From an uncultured Acidobacteriota bacterium (lineage in GTDB: Bacteria; Acidobacteriota; Vicinamibacteria; Marinacidobacterales; DATDRI01), in assembly GCA_963697355.1 (NCBI GenBank), contig CAVONV010000023.1, positions 1,362,400-1,426,399 of the forward strand: a stretch of 64,000 nucleotides of DNA, written 5' to 3'. This document shows, piece after piece, positions 28,209 through 37,046 of the stretch. The position numbers and the translations under genes are program-made. The notes beneath the pieces were generated by a model. That model saw only the letters and a program-made list of their open reading frames with translations, was not told the origin of the DNA and did not search any database. The stretch's first letter is position 1, and every line of letters begins with the position of its first letter.

Positions 28209-29678
28209 ATGCAAACGGGCTCATATATCGACGGTAAGTGGTTTCATCCCCGCTCGGACAAGCGCGTCATCAATGTCAACCCCGCAGACAAAACCGACAC
28301 CATTTCGGAGTTTCCTATGGCCTCTGCCGAAGATGCCGAAAAGGCCATCGAGGCGGCCAAGACCGCTTTTCCCAAATGGAAGAAGGTGCCTGCCCCGGAG
28401 CGCGGCCGAGTGCTTTGGCGTGCTGTGGACATCGCGAGGCGGCGGGCGGATGAGATTGCCGAGGTGATGACGCGTGAAGAAGGAAAGATTCTAAAGGAAG
28501 CCAAAGGCGAAGTTCTGAAAGGAATCTCCCTCATTGAGTACTACGCCGGGGCGGGATATCGGATCAGTGGCAAAACCTTACCTTCCGAAGCGCGTAGCAC
28601 ATTCACCTACACCATGCGTCAACCCCTCGGTGTCGTGGGGCTCATATCTCCTTGGAACTTCCCTTGGGCGATCCCGGTGTGGAAGACGGCACCGGCCATC
28701 GTTACGGGCAACACCGTGGTCTTCAAGCCCGCGACATTGACACCCGCCACCGCCTCCATTCTTGCCGAAATTTACGAAGAGGCGGGTCTCCCGCCTGGTG
28801 TCTTCAATATCGTCGTCGGCTCGGGCTCAGAAGTCGGCGAGGCCATCGTCAACAGTTCCGCGATCCCTGCCGTCTCCTTTACGGGCTCCAATGCCATTGG
28901 AAGCGACCTCTATGTGAAGGCGGCCGCGCGCGGGGCTAAGGTGACCTGCGAGATGGGAGGCAAAAACGCGGTCATCGTGATGCCGGATGCCGATCTCGAA
29001 AAAGCGGCCGTGGCCATTCGTGACGGTGCCTTTGGGTCGACGGGGCAGCGTTGCACCGCGACTTCGAGAGTCATTGCTCACGAATCGACGAAAGACGAGC
29101 TCGTCGAGCGTTTGGTCGAGTTCGCTAAGAAGATCAAAATCGGACCCGGACTCGACGAGACCGTGGATATGGGACCTGCCGTCGACGAAAGCCAGTGGAA
29201 GACGGACTTCGACTACATCAATGTGGGGAAGAGCGAAGGTGCGCGATTGGTCGTGGGCGGCGGGAAGCCCAAGGACGTGCCCGATGGCTACTACGTCGAG
29301 CCTACGATTTTCGACCAGGTCGATCCCGGAATGCGCATCTTTCGCGAGGAGATCTTCGGCCCCGTTTTGTCGGTTGCGACGGCGACATCATTTGAAGAAG
29401 CCCTGCAATCGGCTAATTCCGTCGAGTATGGTCTGACGACATCCATCTTCACCAAAGACATCGATCACATTATGCATTTTATCGATGAAGTCGAAACGGG
29501 GATGGTCCATATCAACGAGCCCACCATTGGCGGCGAAGCTCAGCTTCCCTTTGGTGGCATCAAAGCCACGGGAGTAGGGGACCGCGAGATGTCCGAGGAG
29601 GGCCTGAATTTCTTCACGGAGCTCAAGACCGTCTTCATCAATTACTCGGGCGAAGCGGGACGCTTGATGATTCGGTGA
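28209..29678 (+). CDS. NAD(P)+-dependent aldehyde dehydrogenase
   Basis: ALDH hallmarks [41 protein letters not shown]. Confidence 0.9.
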
Positions 29679-30002
29679 GTGGACGTTTCAAGTCCAATCC
29701 CCGGTGCCTCTTTGGCCACCGGGGAGCTCGAGTCATAAGACCGAGAAGTAGATGCGGACGCCGAAGCGGAGGAGGCGTGCCGACAGGGTGAAGTTGATCT
29801 GGTTCGCATTCGACGGGTTCTGGCGTCGATGCCTCCTTAGAAATGTTGCAGTGTTCGTCAAATTGAAGATGTCCCTCATCCCGCTCCAGCGTGTTCTTCC
29901 AATATTGAAGCTTTTCTCTACGGGGAGGTCGGCATACCAAAGGTTCGGCAGACGTTTGTCTTCGAGCGTATCCTAGTTTTGACTACCTGTCCTTCCACAA
30001 CG

Positions 30003-30083
30003 TGGCGCGATAAAATTGAAAATCGCGCCATTACTGTTTCATAATATTATAAATAAAAGGTTTATTCCATTGAAATCGCGCCA
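30003..30083 (+). promoter_or_regulatory. AT-rich promoter/operator region: palindrome TGGCGCGAT-N10-ATCGCGCCA plus a second direct copy of ATTGAAA(A)TCGCGCCA
   Basis: 30003-30030 is a 9-bp inverted repeat; 30069-30083 repeats ATTGAAATCGCGCCA. TCTAGTCTAGA palindrome at 30086-30096. The only strongly AT-rich stretch in the window, directly upstream of the Fic-like gene. Confidence 0.4.
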
Positions 30084-30108
30084 CGTCTAGTCTAGAATTA
30101 AGCCACAT

Positions 30109-31518
30109 ATGGCTCAGAGTGCAAGAGAAAAGCAAGATGCGGCTATCCTTGAAGCCGTTTCCAGGTACCCCCATGGAGCCAGCTTCGCCGAGGTTCATCG
30201 TGAGCTAAAGAGTATTACCCGGCGAACCCTTACTAGACGGTTTGCCAATCTCGTCAAAGCAAAAAGACTGCTGCGCCGAGGCAAAGCACGCGCGACTCGG
30301 TACTTTCTTGCATCTGAGTCGTCTTCTCAGGTTGTCCAGCCGCGAGCAATGCACTCCGAGGTGCCGCTGAGGACACCAGGGTTCGAAGCTTCGATTCCAG
30401 GATCCACAGAGGGGAGGGCCATACGAGATTACCTTCGCAAACCCATCGAAGAACGTCGTCCAGTAGGATATCAGCGCGAATTCCTGGACGAATATAGGCC
30501 CAACGAGACCGCCTATTTGCCCGAAAGCGTTCGCAAACATCTGCTCCACATCGGACGTAGCCCTATTGGCAGCGAACGACCTGCAGGTACCTACGCGCGG
30601 CAAATTCTGAATCGTTTACTCATAGACCTTTCTTGGGCATCCTCACGACTAGAAGGGAACACATACAGTCGCCTCGATACGGAGCGATTGATACTGTTCG
30701 GCCAGTCAGCGCAGGGAAAGGATGTCACTGAAACACAGATGATCCTCAACCATAAAGCAGCGATTGAGTTCCTCGCAGATCAGGCTGAGGAGTTGTCGTT
30801 CAACCGATATACATTTTTGAACCTCCACGCGTTGCTTTCCGAAAACCTTCTCGTGAATCCAGACGCCGCCGGTCGTCTACGGCAAATACCGGTCGAAGTT
30901 TCGAGCACTGTTTTCCATCCGCTGGCTATTCCTCAGGTGATCGACGAGTGCTTCCAGCAGATACTGGACACGGCAGCGGCCATCCAAGACCCATTCGAGC
31001 AATCGTTGTTCATCATGGTTCATGTCCCGTACCTCCAGCCATTCGAGGACATGAACAAGCGCGTCTCTCGTCTCGGTGCCAATATCTCACTGATCCTGCG
31101 AAATCTCTGCCCTCTTTCGTTCGTCGATGTTCCAGAGAGCGCCTACGTCGACGGGATACTCGGCGTTTACGAGCTCAACCGGGTCGAGCTGTTGCGCGAG
31201 ACTTTCATCTGGGCATACGAGCGCTCCTGCCAAAGATATCTTGCGGTTCGTCAGTCGACAGCGGAGCCCGACCCCTTCCGTCTTCGCTATCGGAACGCAC
31301 TCGTAGAGGCGGTCGGTCTCGTGGTACGCAATCCTGTCGAAACCGCAGATACCGTGCTGAGCGAATACGCTGCTGGGGAAATTGATCCAAGCGATCGCGG
31401 ACATTTTGTTGAACTGGGGCTCAAGGAAATAGAGAGATTGCACGAAGGGACCATAGCGCGGTACCGGATCCGGCCCTCCGAATACCATGATTGGAAGAAA
31501 CTCAGACGGAGTGATTAG
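30109..31518 (+). CDS. HTH-Fic-like protein (N-terminal winged-helix region, Fic-fold core) with degenerate active-site motif
   Basis: N-terminus LKSITRRTLTRRFANLVKAKRLLRRGKARATRYFL (wHTH-like). Core FIMVHVPYLQPFEDMNKRVSRL aligns with FHxxLxxIHPFxDGNGRxxRL but reads QPFEDMNKR (His to Gln, both Gly replaced). GC content lower than flanking genes. Confidence 0.6.
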   Translation: MAQSAREKQDAAILEAVSRYPHGASFAEVHRELKSITRRTLTRRFANLVKAKRLLRRGKARATRYFLASESSSQVVQPRAMHSEVPLRTPGFEASIPGSTEGRAIRDYLRKPIEERRPVGYQREFLDEYRPNETAYLPESVRKHLLHIGRSPIGSERPAGTYARQILNRLLIDLSWASSRLEGNTYSRLDTERLILFGQSAQGKDVTETQMILNHKAAIEFLADQAEELSFNRYTFLNLHALLSENLLVNPDAAGRLRQIPVEVSSTVFHPLAIPQVIDECFQQILDTAAAIQDPFEQSLFIMVHVPYLQPFEDMNKRVSRLGANISLILRNLCPLSFVDVPESAYVDGILGVYELNRVELLRETFIWAYERSCQRYLAVRQSTAEPDPFRLRYRNALVEAVGLVVRNPVETADTVLSEYAAGEIDPSDRGHFVELGLKEIERLHEGTIARYRIRPSEYHDWKKLRRSD

Positions 31519-31571
31519 ACGGAAAAACAGAAGAAGCACCAGGTCTGTCTTGTCACAATTCTCGGCAGCGG

Positions 31572-34283
31572 CTACTCGGAGCGCAACGCTTCGATGGGGT
31601 CGATCCGGGAGGCGCGTCGGGCGGGAAGGTAGGTGGCAAGCAGGGCGACGCTCAGTAAGATGCAGGAAACTCCACCATAAACCAGCGGGTCCGTGGGACT
31701 CACATCAAAAAGGAGAGCCTGTAGGATCTGATTGAGTCCAAGCGCGCCTAAGATACCAATGGCCCACCCCATGCAAGCGAGCCCAGCACCTCGGCGAATC
31801 ACCATGGTGAGCACGTCGCCGGCCCTCGCACCTAGAGCCATGCGCAGTCCGATCTCTCCCGTTCGCAGGTCTACCAGGTAAGAGATGGTTCCGTACAAGC
31901 CGAGGGCTCCCAGGAACAGTGCGACCACAGCCGCGACGCTCAATAGGAGCATGGTGAATTCCCGACCCACCAAGGATCTGATCAGAACATCCTGCATGGG
32001 TTGGACGTTAGCCACGGGTAGCTCGCTATCCACAGACATAATTGCCTGACGGACCGGCTCGACCAGCATGAGTGGATCCGCATCTGTTCGCACAACGACC
32101 ACCATGTTGTGTGTCTCTGAATAATTCCGTTCGTCGATACCGACCATGGGAAGGTACATGACCTCCGCCGGTTCGTCGCTGAGGTCGTCTTGCCTTATGC
32201 TGCCGACGACTCCGACGATGGTGTACCAGGGCGCATCACCTCTCAGGCCGGGGTAGATTCGTTTACCGATGGCGTCTCCGTCTGGCCAGAACCGCTCGGC
32301 CACCGCGTGGCTCACCACCATGGCGCCAGTGCGCTCGTCGTGGTCGCGACGCTCGAAGGTTCTTCCCGCCACAAGTGGAATGCCCATGGCACGGAAGTAT
32401 CCCGGCCCGGCCGTACTCATCGCCATGCGGGGAGGCAGTTCATTCGGCGCGAGCGGAAGTTCCTCCACCTCCATGGTGTTCGCATTGGTGCAGCCTTGGA
32501 GCGGCAAGCAGTCGGCGACACCGACGGCCCGGACGCCCGGAAGTGAACGGATCTCATCCGACAGTCGTTGTAGCGTCGCCGCCGCGTCAGCCTGTTCGGG
32601 ATAACGGTTTTCGGGCAGCGCGATCCGAAGTGTTAAGACTCCTTGCGGATCGAAACCCGGATCAATGCGATGCAGTTTCACAAAGCTTCTCACCAAGAGA
32701 CCGGACCCTACGAGCAGTATGAGTGCCAAAGCCATCTGTGCCACCGCTAGGGCATGGCGCGTCAGCACACGAGGAGCTCCGGCCGTCGTGCCGCGACTTC
32801 CGTCCCTCAAGAGCGAGGTCCGTTGGGTGGCGACGATGCGAAGGTGAGTGATGAGCCCAAAGATCAGTCCTGCACCCAAAGCGATGGCGCCGGAGAAGAG
32901 GAGCGCCGCCCCATCGATCCTCACTTCGTCGAGTCGAGGGATGTTCGAATCGCCGTAAACGGCGACGACCCGAAGGGCACCGTAGGTGAGCGCCAAGCCG
33001 GTGATGGCGGCGAGAATCGTGAGGAGCATGCCCTCCGCGAGTAGATACTGCAGTATTCTCGAAGGACTTGCCCCCAATGCGGCCCGCAGCGCCACCTCGC
33101 GTTGCTTACCTTCGGCACGGACCAGGAAAAGGTTCGCCACGTTGGCACAGGCGATGAGGAGCACGAAACCCACGGCTCCAAAAATGAGCCAGAGTGTCGG
33201 CCGAATGTCCTCCACGATGTTGTCGCGGAGAGGGGTCACCAATGTAGCCAAGCCGATGTTCTCGAGAAGCTCGTCGGTAAGGCCTGGAAACTTCGCTTTC
33301 ATCGCGGGAACCACTGCGTCCAGGTTGGCTCGTGCTATCTCGGGATCGGCACTAGCCTCGAGCCGGGCGATGGAGTGGAATCCCGACAATTGGAATTGGG
33401 TGTCGTGAGGATCGATCTCGAGGGCAATCCACATCTGAGTTTCCCGCGATGGATAGTGGAACGACGGAGGCATCACACCCACGATCTGGTGGGTGACGTC
33501 GTCGAGCTCAATCATCTGCCCGATAACCGCTTCGCTGCCGCCGAATCGTCGATGCCAGAGACCGTTGCTCAGCAAAACTACCGGTGAAGCGCCAGGTGTT
33601 TCATCCGATTCGAGAAAACCTCGGCCCATCATAGGCCCGACTCGAAGAGCTTGGAAGAGGCCGGCCGTGGCTTCGGTGGCGATGATGCGTTCCGGCTCGC
33701 CCATCCCGGTCAAATTGAATCCTCTGCGGCGATAGAGCCCCATGCTGGCGAAGACACGATTGGTTTTCCGATAGTGAGCGTAGGTGCCCTGCGAGATGTT
33801 GAGGGAGGGGAAACCTGCCCCCGGTGCCGTATGCTGCACTCGGACGAGTCGCTCCGATTCGGCATAAGGAAGGGGGCGGAACAAGACGCCGTTGACCACA
33901 CAAAAGATAGTCGTGGTGGCGCCCAGGCCCAGAGCTAGGGTGATCACGGCTACGAGCGTGAAGCCCGGATCGGCGGCGAGTCGCCTTGCTGCTGGGCGGA
34001 GCTCTTCGAAAAACGACGGCTTCAGCCCCCTGGGCTTCGGGCTTCTCGCCTGGGCAAAGGCCACCGATAGCAGGTTCCACCATTGCTTCCCGGCGACGAA
34101 GACCAATCCTGCAATCTCTCGGATGGCGAACCAGCAGCGGCCGAGGACAGATTTGTGCTTCCGATGATCAATCTCGCGTGCGGCGTAAGTTTCTGCCATT
34201 GCGAGCCCATAGGACCCCCTAAATTGGGGTGGCAGGAGCACCAGCAATCGGCGGTATAAGCGGGACGTCAGAGTCTGGGGCAT
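31572..34283 (-). CDS. ADOP-type duplicated FtsX/MacB-like ABC transporter permease (903 aa)
   Basis: Two FtsX-like 4-TM modules with large extracytoplasmic domains, immediately downstream of a PadR regulator. Confidence 0.85.
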   Translation of the reverse strand: MPQTLTSRLYRRLLVLLPPQFRGSYGLAMAETYAAREIDHRKHKSVLGRCWFAIREIAGLVFVAGKQWWNLLSVAFAQARSPKPRGLKPSFFEELRPAARRLAADPGFTLVAVITLALGLGATTTIFCVVNGVLFRPLPYAESERLVRVQHTAPGAGFPSLNISQGTYAHYRKTNRVFASMGLYRRRGFNLTGMGEPERIIATEATAGLFQALRVGPMMGRGFLESDETPGASPVVLLSNGLWHRRFGGSEAVIGQMIELDDVTHQIVGVMPPSFHYPSRETQMWIALEIDPHDTQFQLSGFHSIARLEASADPEIARANLDAVVPAMKAKFPGLTDELLENIGLATLVTPLRDNIVEDIRPTLWLIFGAVGFVLLIACANVANLFLVRAEGKQREVALRAALGASPSRILQYLLAEGMLLTILAAITGLALTYGALRVVAVYGDSNIPRLDEVRIDGAALLFSGAIALGAGLIFGLITHLRIVATQRTSLLRDGSRGTTAGAPRVLTRHALAVAQMALALILLVGSGLLVRSFVKLHRIDPGFDPQGVLTLRIALPENRYPEQADAAATLQRLSDEIRSLPGVRAVGVADCLPLQGCTNANTMEVEELPLAPNELPPRMAMSTAGPGYFRAMGIPLVAGRTFERRDHDERTGAMVVSHAVAERFWPDGDAIGKRIYPGLRGDAPWYTIVGVVGSIRQDDLSDEPAEVMYLPMVGIDERNYSETHNMVVVVRTDADPLMLVEPVRQAIMSVDSELPVANVQPMQDVLIRSLVGREFTMLLLSVAAVVALFLGALGLYGTISYLVDLRTGEIGLRMALGARAGDVLTMVIRRGAGLACMGWAIGILGALGLNQILQALLFDVSPTDPLVYGGVSCILLSVALLATYLPARRASRIDPIEALRSE

Positions 34284-34293
34284 AGGTTGCCTA

Positions 34294-34644
34294 TCACGCT
34301 GATCCGGAGTAAATCTTCTTCGCGCGCGCGGCCGCCACCAGCTCGTCGAGGCGGCGTGACTCGAGGGCTGCGACTTTACGGCCGAGACGTGTCAACTGGA
34401 AGTAATGACGGCGCGCATCGACTCCCATCGCTGCAACGGCAGGCTCGATGAAACCATCGTCCTGCAGTCGCTTCAAGGTCTGGTACAGGCTACCTGTCGT
34501 CGGGTTCAGCTTGCCACCGGAACGCTCTTCGATTTCCTTTCCAATGGCATATCCGTGTGCCGACCCGCTGCCGAGAGCAAGGAGGATATGGAATGACAGA
34601 TTGCTCAATGGCAAGTGATCTTTGGTATCGTTTTTCCCTGGCAT
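34294..34644 (-). CDS. PadR-family transcriptional regulator
   Basis: HILLALGSGSAHGYAIGKEIEERSGGKLNPTTGSLYQTLKRLQDDGFIE is the canonical PadR wHTH. Confidence 0.85.
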   Translation of the reverse strand: MPGKNDTKDHLPLSNLSFHILLALGSGSAHGYAIGKEIEERSGGKLNPTTGSLYQTLKRLQDDGFIEPAVAAMGVDARRHYFQLTRLGRKVAALESRRLDELVAAARAKKIYSGSA

Positions 34645-36319: not shown

Positions 36320-36724
36320 CTACCGCATGCGGTTTTGTTGCCAGTGGGTTTTGACCGGGTACGACTGAATCTTCTCATCCGATGTGACCAACAGGAGATC
36401 ATGTTCAATTGCCTGGCATATGAGCATGCGATCGAACGGATCTCGATGGATCGGAGGCAATTTCGGCAGATGAACCGTTGCGGTCTCTTCCAGCGGTAGC
36501 GTGTCAATTCTGTGGCGTTCGCGCTGCTTGGACACATAGAAGTATGGTGCTTCTGGTAAGTCGAGTCGACCGAGCTGGTGCTTGACGAAGACCTCCCACA
36601 CGGAAATGACGCTCAACCATACACTGTTGTCCGGGGAACGTATGTCATCAGCCGTTGTGTCGGGAAGCCTGGCATCTGCTGTGATAAACCAGAGGAAAGT
36701 GGACGTGTCGAGAAGCAGTCTCAA
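36320..36724 (-). CDS. vapC: PIN-domain toxin VapC
   Basis: MRLLLDTSTFLW...DPFDRMLICQAIEHDLLLVTSD. Its ATG overlaps the stop of the upstream antitoxin (ATGA). Confidence 0.8.
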   Translation of the reverse strand: MRLLLDTSTFLWFITADARLPDTTADDIRSPDNSVWLSVISVWEVFVKHQLGRLDLPEAPYFYVSKQRERHRIDTLPLEETATVHLPKLPPIHRDPFDRMLICQAIEHDLLLVTSDEKIQSYPVKTHWQQNRMR

Positions 36725-36957
36725 CCTTCGAAATCCTTGAGTACGGTTTCTGGAAGAGGCTCATCGAAATCGTGCGGAACCTCAAAGTCTCCAGCACATA
36801 GTCCCATCGGTCGGGGTGAGTCTAGCTTTCTGGAAATGGGCCGGAGCTCGGCCACCGGCTGGTTCCGGCGCGCCAAAATGACCGTTTCTCCGGCCTCAAC
36901 CCGCTTGATGTATTCGGTCAACCGAGCCTTTGCGTCCGCGATATTAACGATCGTCAT
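36721..36957 (-). CDS. vapB: Phd/YefM-type antitoxin (78 aa) cognate to VapC
   Basis: MTIVNIADAKARLTEYIKRVEAGETVILARRNQPVAELRPI. A 4-nt overlap with vapC is the classic type II TA arrangement. Confidence 0.8.
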   Translation of the reverse strand: MTIVNIADAKARLTEYIKRVEAGETVILARRNQPVAELRPISRKLDSPRPMGLCAGDFEVPHDFDEPLPETVLKDFEG

Positions 36958-37046
36958 GATTTTATTATAGTCATATTTATAGTCATGTCAATGACCATAT
37001 TGGGGGGGCGATGATTGGATGTTCTTCTGTTCGGGCACGAGGGAGC

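Follow-up and report, generated by a model that had tools for sequence, protein, structure and literature searches.

A mobile family of Gln-variant Fic proteins with a fused winged helix and predicted autoregulatory operators

What can a Fic protein do when the catalytic histidine of its motif has been replaced by glutamine? The question is raised by a gene in a 64,000-nt stretch of contig CAVONV010000023.1 from an uncultured Acidobacteriota bacterium (assembly GCA_963697355.1; the whole stretch is called the window below), which encodes a 469-aa protein that we refer to as Fic(Q). An earlier description made from the letters of the window (the sequence-only reading) called its motif catalytically degenerate and proposed a DNA-binding regulator, a pseudoenzyme or an antitoxin-like partner behind a palindromic operator. 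Our comparisons indicate instead that Fic(Q) is an intact member of a very large, mobile and functionally uncharacterised Gln-variant Fic family. We tentatively favour the view that these proteins are self-repressed, self-inhibited Fic effectors of the toxin or defence type, with a remodelled but selected nucleotide site.

Domain architecture and fold

Residues 232–326 match the Pfam Fic family PF02661 (E = 6.8e-7, 30.5 bits, cut-off 24), which is also matched by 65 of the 66 family members in our alignment. The AlphaFold2 model of the 469-aa protein built on that alignment has a predicted local distance difference test score (pLDDT) of 92.4 and a predicted TM-score of 0.74. A Foldseek search with the model returns FICD structures at E = 8e-8 and gives a probability of 1.0 for FICD, BT_2513, SoFic, CbFic2 and PDB entry 7xux. 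By both the Pfam threshold and its core fold the protein belongs to the Fic/Fido fold, as had been proposed.

Within residues 301–322 (FIMVHVPYLQPFEDMNKRVSRL), the segment QPFEDMNKRVSR lies in exact register with HPFxDGNGRxxR, with His replaced by Gln, the first Gly by Met and the second Gly by Lys. This register, which the sequence-only reading had already given, was recovered in three ways: in the Pfam alignment, in a phmmer search of PDB sequences, where QPFEDMNKRVSRL is aligned to HPFTDGNGRTARL of FICD and Caenorhabditis elegans FIC-1, and with the 66-member family profile, which matches FICD at E = 9e-18 with the motif register unchanged. As judged from these alignments, the protein lacks the canonical AMPylase motif HxFx(D/E)GNGRxxR with its invariant His. 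The phmmer alignment also pairs SSRLEGNT with the inhibitory-helix motif TVAIEGNT. In class II Fic proteins the inhibitory motif (S/T)xxxE(G/N) lies on a helix N-terminal to the core (Engel et al. 2012, via PMC9755527 and PMC5651007). Fic(Q) carries such a helix ahead of the core in the same chain and is, by this sequence criterion, a class II Fic protein.

The N-terminus had been read as winged-helix-like, and this is supported by the model, in which residues 1–67 form a helix-helix-helix-strand-strand arrangement with a two-stranded wing, i.e., a winged helix-turn-helix (wHTH), whose recognition helix spans residues 38–50 (RRTLTRRFANLVK). The N-termini of some homologues match the Pfam families HTH_20, MarR_2 or Penicillinase_R, and the family profile finds weak matches to BlaI, HlyU and ArsR structures for this region. 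The C-terminal extension (residues 386–469) lies outside the PDB matches and has no counterpart in FICD. No NCBIfam model is specific to the 469-aa protein. The public gene call for the window gene starts at the internal M81 and thereby loses 30109–30348, the whole winged helix; internal-Met starts are probable for several close homologues as well (372–389 aa; L001 7246–8415; P0001 and P0008–P0011). Such calls, which are often made, strip the wHTH from database proteins and conceal the domain architecture.

The Gln-for-His motif as a family signature

An exhaustive search of 50%-identity cluster representatives at E ≤ 1e-30 places at least 771 clusters in the family. Among 98 full-length representatives, the residues of the variant motif are strongly retained: Q310 in 95, F312 in 98, D314 in 90, N316 in 95, K317 in 86, R318 in 90 and R321 in 98. 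The position of the first motif Gly is more variable, with Val in 67 representatives, Gly in 15 and Met, as in the window copy, in 2. The resulting consensus is QPFxD(V/G)NKR(T/V)(S/A)R. The 120 closest database proteins are 56–75% identical to Fic(Q) and mostly 455–475 aa long; 113 of them contain the motif pattern, and of these 113 all but one have Gln at the His position.

Outside the motif, E182, G183 and N184 of the inhibitory helix are conserved in at least 90% of the representatives, as are G255 and P271 of the flap, in which R258 is invariant. N214 and H215, which are specific to the family, likewise reach at least 90% or are invariant. By region, mean column identity peaks at 0.73 in the inhibitory helix, followed by 0.65 in the Fic core; the C-terminal extension (0.44) and the wHTH (0.43) score lower, and the linker region (residues 68–98) drops to 0.17. 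The window copy retains 55 of the 56 family columns that are at least 90% conserved, and we therefore consider the gene intact.

Judged by these counts, Q..(V/G)NKR..R is a strictly conserved family signature and no one-off decay. The variant motif, whose distribution the sequence-only reading had suggested examining, thus proves to be the rule in a large family, and the term degenerate is misleading for a class in which the Fic core ranks near the top in conservation and which was catalogued in 2015. A decaying, non-functional Fic pseudogene is accordingly very improbable, and the present data already contradict it. Loss of the canonical catalytic residues would fit such decay, yet the reading frame is full length, the conserved columns are kept, the variant motif is the family consensus and the AlphaFold2 model is confident.

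To our knowledge, the motif His is present in all characterised Fic and Doc enzymes. In nearly all members His is replaced by Gln and Gly-Asn-Gly by (V/G/M)-Asn-Lys, and AMPylation of the canonical, His-driven kind is therefore not to be expected. The Gln clade is nonetheless clearly under selection and may have an unexplored Fic-fold chemistry or be a nucleotide-sensing pseudoenzyme; databases label its members merely as 'Fic family protein'.

The motif class itself was described by Khater & Mohanty (2015, Sci Rep, PMC4454073), who defined Qx[F|Y]x[D|E][G|V]NKR as 'clade D2', with 45 bacterial sequences. They placed these mostly single-domain proteins in the Doc clade and argued that they are perhaps not catalytically dead. 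Clade D2 and the Fic(Q) family share the change of His to Gln and the Asn-Lys-Arg that follows; both are confined to bacteria and both are uncharacterised. Unlike clade D2, the Fic(Q) family is multi-domain (wHTH, linker, inhibitory helix, core and C-terminal helices), comprises hundreds of clusters, and has a profile closest to the FICD-type class II Fic proteins; Doc chains in the PDB are not matched by this profile even at E ≤ 10. At the [G/V] position of the published motif, the window protein has the rare Met. We equate the two groups by motif only: the sequences of the Fic(Q) family would fit clade D2 by that measure and would fall outside it as a set of single-domain, Doc-like proteins.

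A predicted operator conserved across phyla

Upstream of the gene, TGGCGCGAT (30003–30011) and ATCGCGCCA (30022–30030) lie 10 nt apart, and the proximal half-site ATTGAAATCGCGCCA is a direct repeat of 30020–30030 (Table 1). The outer pair, ACGTGGCGCGAT at 30000–30011 and ATCGCGCCACGT at 30075–30086, forms an inverted repeat with perfect 12-nt arms that stand 63 nt apart. Exact TGGCGCGAT sites occur three times in the 64 kb, all within 30003–30083, and paired operator sites are found in the window only at the promoter of the Fic(Q) gene itself. The half-sites abut or overlap both sigma-70-like hexamer pairs, P1 and P2. Use of P2 would leave a leader of a few nucleotides before the ATG at 30109, ahead of which no Shine-Dalgarno sequence is visible.

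These repeats read as the sequence-only reading had given them, except that the TCTAGTCTAGA palindrome is one base off its implied position. This palindrome had been counted as part of the operator; it is present in the window but was not seen in the homologue upstream regions that we read, and it is probably incidental. The stretch was also said to be the only strongly AT-rich one. It is indeed the most AT-rich, with the lowest-GC 60 nt of the window at 30012–30071 (GC 0.23), but 36941–37000 comes close (GC 0.25).

We read 220 nt upstream of homologues from unrelated taxa. In distant phyla, WWTYGCGMCA half-sites lie in inverted orientation in the ~120 bp ahead of the start, and an inverted repeat of the distal-operator type stands at about −70 to −100. 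The usual design is a pair of inverted repeats, with arms such as TGGCGCGATT/AATCGCGCCA (6–7 nt gap), TGGCACGATT/AATCGTGCCA, TGGCGTGATT/AATCACGCCA, TGGCGCAAT/ATTGCGCCA and GCGCGACA/TGTCGCGC (6-nt gap). Between loci the two arms vary together; within one locus, distal and proximal repeat are identical in sequence. Half-sites are also found singly, as direct repeats or everted. An unbiased 7-mer count over the 200 nt upstream gave CGCGACA as 24-fold enriched and CGCGACA, ATTGCGC, CGCGCCA and similar 7-mers as 8- to 24-fold enriched. Across 80 loci, the half-site YGCGMCA reaches 12.3 per kb in the 250 nt upstream, as against 1.14 per kb elsewhere (an 11-fold difference), is concentrated from −125 to 0 and is present in at least two copies at 60 loci. 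Of 82 upstream regions, 55 contain a perfect inverted repeat (arms ≥8 nt, loop of 3–14 nt), as do 5.2% of 1640 control segments; two or more such repeats are present in 25 of the 82 and in 0.4% of the controls. The extended half-site, WWT(C/T)GCG(C/A)CA, is followed by AT-rich sequence.

What had been a guess at an autoregulatory operator is raised by these family-wide half-sites and inverted repeats to a strong inference that the upstream repeats are operators of the Fic(Q) family. DNA similarity between taxa is limited to the last ~120 nt before the start and the open reading frame (ORF), and ends at the stop codon; thus the conserved unit is a promoter/operator of ~115 bp plus the ORF. The cross-phylum WWTYGCGMCA inverted repeat is a new and directly assayable point.

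The repeats might instead be 5′-leader RNA structures, or ends or remnants of a mobile element, an account that we consider quite unlikely. The 12-nt outer repeat could pair, the RNA fold of 29995–30125 has z = −2.4, and concerted changes of the arms between loci resemble RNA covariation. However, the identity of the distal and proximal repeats within a locus and the occurrence of single, direct and everted half-sites fit an RNA structure poorly, and, with the likely promoter downstream of it, the distal repeat would stay untranscribed. No Rfam family was matched in 29500–31700 (the sole hit, P26, is sub-threshold at 23.7 bits against a gathering score of 36), no matching repeat lies 3′ of the gene, and DNA conservation ends at the stop codon.

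Loci sort by half-site type, GCGCCA or GCGACA, and the protein positions most informative of the type are 37, at the start of the recognition helix, and 30, in the preceding helix. Some pairs with similar cores (78–81% identical; among loci L012–L091, e.g., L028 vs L083 and L059 vs L022) differ in their half-sites, GCGCCA or GCGACA, and their recognition helices begin PRRTLQRR, PPRMLQRR or NRRTLQRW.

Table 1 Features of the Fic(Q) locus in the window
Feature	Positions	Strand	Basis
Predicted distal operator: (ACG)TGGCGCGAT, 10-nt gap with −35-like TTGAAA, ATCGCGCCA	30000–30030	+	Sequence read, exact 9-mers
Promoter-like P1: TTGAAA-N18-CATAAT, 10/12 consensus matches	30016–30045	+	Consensus match only
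Putative proximal half-site ATTGAAATCGCGCCA(CGT); ATTGAAATCGCGCCA itself at 30069–30083	30069–30086	+	Sequence read
Promoter-like P2: TTGAAA-N17-TAGAAT	30070–30098	+	Consensus match only
TCTAGTCTAGA palindrome, over −10 of P2	30086–30096	.	Sequence read
Fic(Q) gene, intact; 469-aa wHTH-Fic(Q) protein	30109–31518	+	ORF list
N-terminal wHTH, residues 1–67	30109–30309	+	AlphaFold2 secondary structure, pLDDT 89–98; homologue Pfam matches
Linker, residues 71–91, disordered, poorly conserved	30319–30381	+	pLDDT <50; column identity
Inhibitory-helix motif S178-S-R-L-E182-G183-N184	30640–30660	+	Alignment to TVAIEGN of FICD
Fic core, residues 232–326, with flap pattern G255-R-L-R258...P271	30802–31086	+	Pfam match
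Variant Fic motif Q310-P-F-E-D-M-N-K-R-V-S-R321	31036–31071	+	PDB and profile alignments, family counts
C-terminal all-helical extension, residues 386–469	31264–31515	+	Helices 389–467 at high pLDDT

Distribution, neighbourhood and mobility

In a scan of one genome per species, family-encoding loci were found in at least 593 species genomes. The loci listed come from Beta- and Gammaproteobacteria, Desulfobacterota, Verrucomicrobiota, Planctomycetota and Chlamydiota, as well as from Cyanobacteria, Chlorobiota, Deinococcota and Binatia. Homologues also occur in 40 plasmid records, in each case annotated just 'Fic family protein', with examples beside a partial integrase and beside IS21. In the window, the Fic(Q) gene is lower in GC (0.541) than its neighbours (0.574 and 0.605), and its GC content at third codon positions is 0.57, compared with 0.64–0.71 in four neighbouring genes. 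The low GC noted in the sequence-only reading therefore holds and is consistent with the horizontal acquisition proposed there. Two near-identical long contigs that carry a homologue (L004 3517–4788 and L005 2026–4488) differ upstream of Fic(Q), with RVT_1 alone in one and RVT_1 plus Transposase_mut in the other, which points to recent mobile-element activity adjoining the locus.

No neighbour gene is conserved in 85 non-redundant loci. A search for a conserved small ORF in the flanks, modelled on the regulatory ORF reported next to Sofic, found none, and the 45-aa upstream ORFs of L003 and L005 are mutually unrelated. Fic(Q) loci thus lack the adjacent cognate antitoxin gene that defines type II toxin-antitoxin systems of the Phd-Doc type. 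They also give no genomic support, in the form of a conserved partner gene, to the suggestion that Fic(Q) itself is an antitoxin-like partner. A role as antitoxin or decoy, in which Fic(Q) would counteract a canonical Fic toxin from another locus or would shield or read the modified target of such a toxin, has a precedent in the neutralisation of one Fic protein by another (Campylobacter Fic1 vs Fic2). Fic(Q) keeps its own inhibitory helix, and other Fic proteins account for 2 of 138 immediate neighbours. Yet the absence of any conserved pairing, with another Fic or with any gene, and the fact that the gene travels alone with its promoter make this role improbable.

HsdR, a type I restriction subunit, is the most frequent immediate neighbour (5–6 of the 85 loci), and by our own tally about 10% of immediate neighbours match restriction-modification (R-M) or defence models. 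Three loci are arranged as KilA-N, hsdS, RhuM, Fic(Q), hsdR (L022), as hsdS, SIR2, HerA, Fic(Q), hsdR (L039) and as AAA_21, YhcG, Fic(Q), hsdR (L031). This recurrence between hsdS and hsdR, near SIR2-HerA, RhuM and YhcG, makes Fic(Q) a candidate for defence or addiction. In the same three loci, the stop-codon end of Fic(Q) and the beginning of hsdR share ~22 nt (L022 5341–5362, L031 5338–5359, L039 5392–5413), which suggests translational coupling; expression of the restriction subunit could there be under the control of the Fic(Q) operator as well. The hsdR of L031 (5338–9081, 1248 aa) has an IS200-like Y1 transposase domain (369–448) between HSDR_N and the SWI2/SNF2 ATPase, which is either an insertion or an ORF-calling artefact.

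Comparison with characterised systems

The closest characterised analogue of the Fic(Q) protein is the Yersinia pseudotuberculosis protein CccR (YPK_0951; PMC9755527; PDB entry 7xux), which joins a class II Fic domain to an HTH and is both a toxin and an autorepressor. Negative autoregulation by the CccR dimer, through palindromes at its own −35 and −10 elements, has been shown experimentally; the protein, with the motif H192PFGNGNGRTVR, AMPylates FtsZ, has a C-terminal HTH and is an effector of a type VI secretion system (PMC9755527). Its structure is matched by the Fic(Q) family profile at E = 5e-6. The two share the inhibitory motif (S59ARIEG in CccR, S178SRLEG in Fic(Q)), a fused HTH and a solo gene, as well as palindromes at the −35 and −10 elements of the promoter, which in Fic(Q) are promoter-like hexamers. 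Fic(Q) differs in its Gln for His, altered anion hole, N-terminal HTH and lack of a secretion context. It combines, as CccR does, an HTH, a class II Fic core and palindromes at its own promoter-like hexamers, with the domain order reversed.

The best match in both sequence and structure is to FICD/HYPE and FIC-1, with which Fic(Q) shares the TVAIEGN-type helix, the second motif Arg and the flap pattern GR(F/L)R..V.(V/I).G...P. Unlike Fic(Q), these AMPylases/deAMPylases are eukaryotic enzymes of the endoplasmic reticulum with TPR domains, a canonical HPFxDGNGRxxR and no DNA-binding domain.

The Doc motif is HxFx(D/N)(A/G)NKR, and Doc shows that changes in the anion hole, such as a Lys there, can turn Fic chemistry from AMPylation to phosphorylation. 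Like Fic(Q), Doc of the P1 Phd-Doc system has Lys for the second motif Gly (..NKR), and the anion-hole Lys of Fic(Q) recalls, by analogy, this kinase rather than an AMPylase. Unlike Fic(Q), however, Doc keeps the catalytic His, is without the last Arg, the flap and the inhibitory helix, measures ~126 aa and is neutralised in trans by Phd.

SoFic (SO_4266) and the PADLOC candidate PDC-S04 resemble Fic(Q) as solo class II Fic proteins with a winged helix and an actual or proposed role in defence. The PADLOC models for both match Fic(Q) weakly and over the Fic core only (SoFic, E = 9.4e-8, profile positions 53–212 of 361; PDC-S04, E = 5e-11). PDB entry 3eqx, which we take to be the SoFic structure, has its wHTH at the C-terminus. 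SoFic has a canonical motif, whereas Fic(Q) has Gln; literature abstracts report that SoFic AMPylates EF-Tu.

Proposed mechanism

We propose that the module is one mobile gene, consisting of a promoter/operator and a single ORF. Winged-helix dimers would bind WWTYGCGMCA half-sites (30003–30030 and 30075–30083) over the −35 and −10 elements and so repress their own gene, a step suggested by comparative genomics and the CccR precedent. The remainder of the protein, as its sequence and model show, is a class II, FICD-like Fic fold with its own inhibitory Glu helix and a target-docking flap, in which the Asp, Asn and two Arg that bind metal and phosphate are retained. In nearly all members, the general-base His is Gln and the anion hole (V/G/M)-Asn-Lys. 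Nucleotide binding by the remodelled pocket may persist, and the pocket may act on, or clamp, a cellular target that is conserved, which would make the protein a toxin-like or defence-type effector that works through non-canonical chemistry. We think that the pocket still works because constraint on the protein is strongest in the core, because there is no conserved partner, and because the gene recurs in R-M and defence slots, on plasmids and beside integrases.

Closest to the sequence-only reading is a pure transcription factor, in which a Fic-like pseudoenzyme sensor binds a nucleotide or phosphorylated ligand that tunes the wHTH and nothing is modified. We regard this as possible, and as the most serious competitor. 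The catalytic His is absent from 95 of the 98 representatives, ligand binding alone could explain the conserved Asp, Asn, Lys and Arg, the evidence for the operator is strong, and in the three loci with overlapping hsdR the operator could gate a downstream gene. Most loci, however, have no conserved downstream gene, and in the window the paired sites stand at the gene's own promoter only; a regulator of nothing but itself has no obvious selective value. Moreover, the target-docking flap and the intramolecular inhibitory Glu are traits of Fic enzymes that engage proteins. The DNA-binding part of the earlier proposal is therefore supported by the wHTH, but a mere DNA-binding scaffold is not, since SxxxEGN and the flap GRLR..V.I.G...P are retained. 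It is the doubtful value of self-only regulation, together with the recurrence as R-M and defence cargo, that leads us to prefer the effector. This reading, to which we would give somewhat less than an even chance, ranks first, above the ligand-sensing regulator and then the antitoxin or decoy, the non-operator repeats and the pseudogene.

Several points weigh against the effector: (i) Gln is incapable of acting as a general base, and no substitute catalytic residue was identified. (ii) A literature search returned no experimental work on Gln-variant Fic proteins. (iii) The promoter-like sites P1 and P2 are consensus matches only. (iv) The covariation of HTH and operator is confounded, since operator and HTH-coding 5′ end adjoin and are exchanged together, in at least 10 switches along the Fic-core tree; it is therefore consistent evidence and no proof. 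(v) About 90% of loci, the window included, lie outside recognisable defence islands and have housekeeping surroundings. (vi) No family member was found in a phage collection and BFVD, where the matches were a canonical Fic of a Helicobacter phage and generic Fic proteins; we list this absence here, although it neither helps nor hurts a role in defence.

It is conceivable, though we consider it doubtful, that this widespread, mobile, self-repressing wHTH-Fic family embodies either a Fic-fold reaction of a new kind or a non-catalytic switch gated by a nucleotide. In either case it could serve, from type I R-M cargo slots, as a defence or addiction module of a new, single-gene type. As new chemistry, one may think of a transfer whose acceptor nucleophile can do without a general base, or of a flipped-nucleotide reaction like that of Doc. 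Interest in the family would become high if the Gln site ran a new reaction or served in defence. The motif class was already catalogued; what the present analysis adds is the fused N-terminal wHTH, the phylum-spanning operator and the association with defence cargo.

Genomic surroundings in the window

The Fic(Q) gene stands between an aldehyde dehydrogenase gene (28209–29678, + strand) and a MacB/FtsX-type permease with a PadR regulator (31572–34644, − strand). No tRNA gene that could serve as an integration site was found in 20000–42000. In an empty-site comparison, 80 metagenomic loci had relatives of the aldehyde dehydrogenase (74–80% identity) and none had the Fic gene; none has the other neighbours seen in the window, so the comparison leaves the insertion boundaries undefined.

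Just past the aldehyde dehydrogenase stop, a GC-rich hairpin, CCCCGGTG...CACCGGGG (29667–29725), is the source of the P26 match and probably the terminator of that gene; the 270 nt that follow (29726–29995) hold no assignable feature. On the other side, the 903-aa MacB_PCD/FtsX permease has duplicated domains and directly follows the PadR-family regulator. Both are transcribed towards the Fic(Q) gene, and only 53 nt separate the facing stop codons. Further downstream on the − strand, a PIN toxin (36320–36724) and a PhdYeFM antitoxin (36721–36957) form a pair, and the AT-rich segment 36941–37000, which ranks second among the 60-nt stretches of the window in AT content and lies at the 5′ end of the antitoxin gene, is probably the promoter of that gene.

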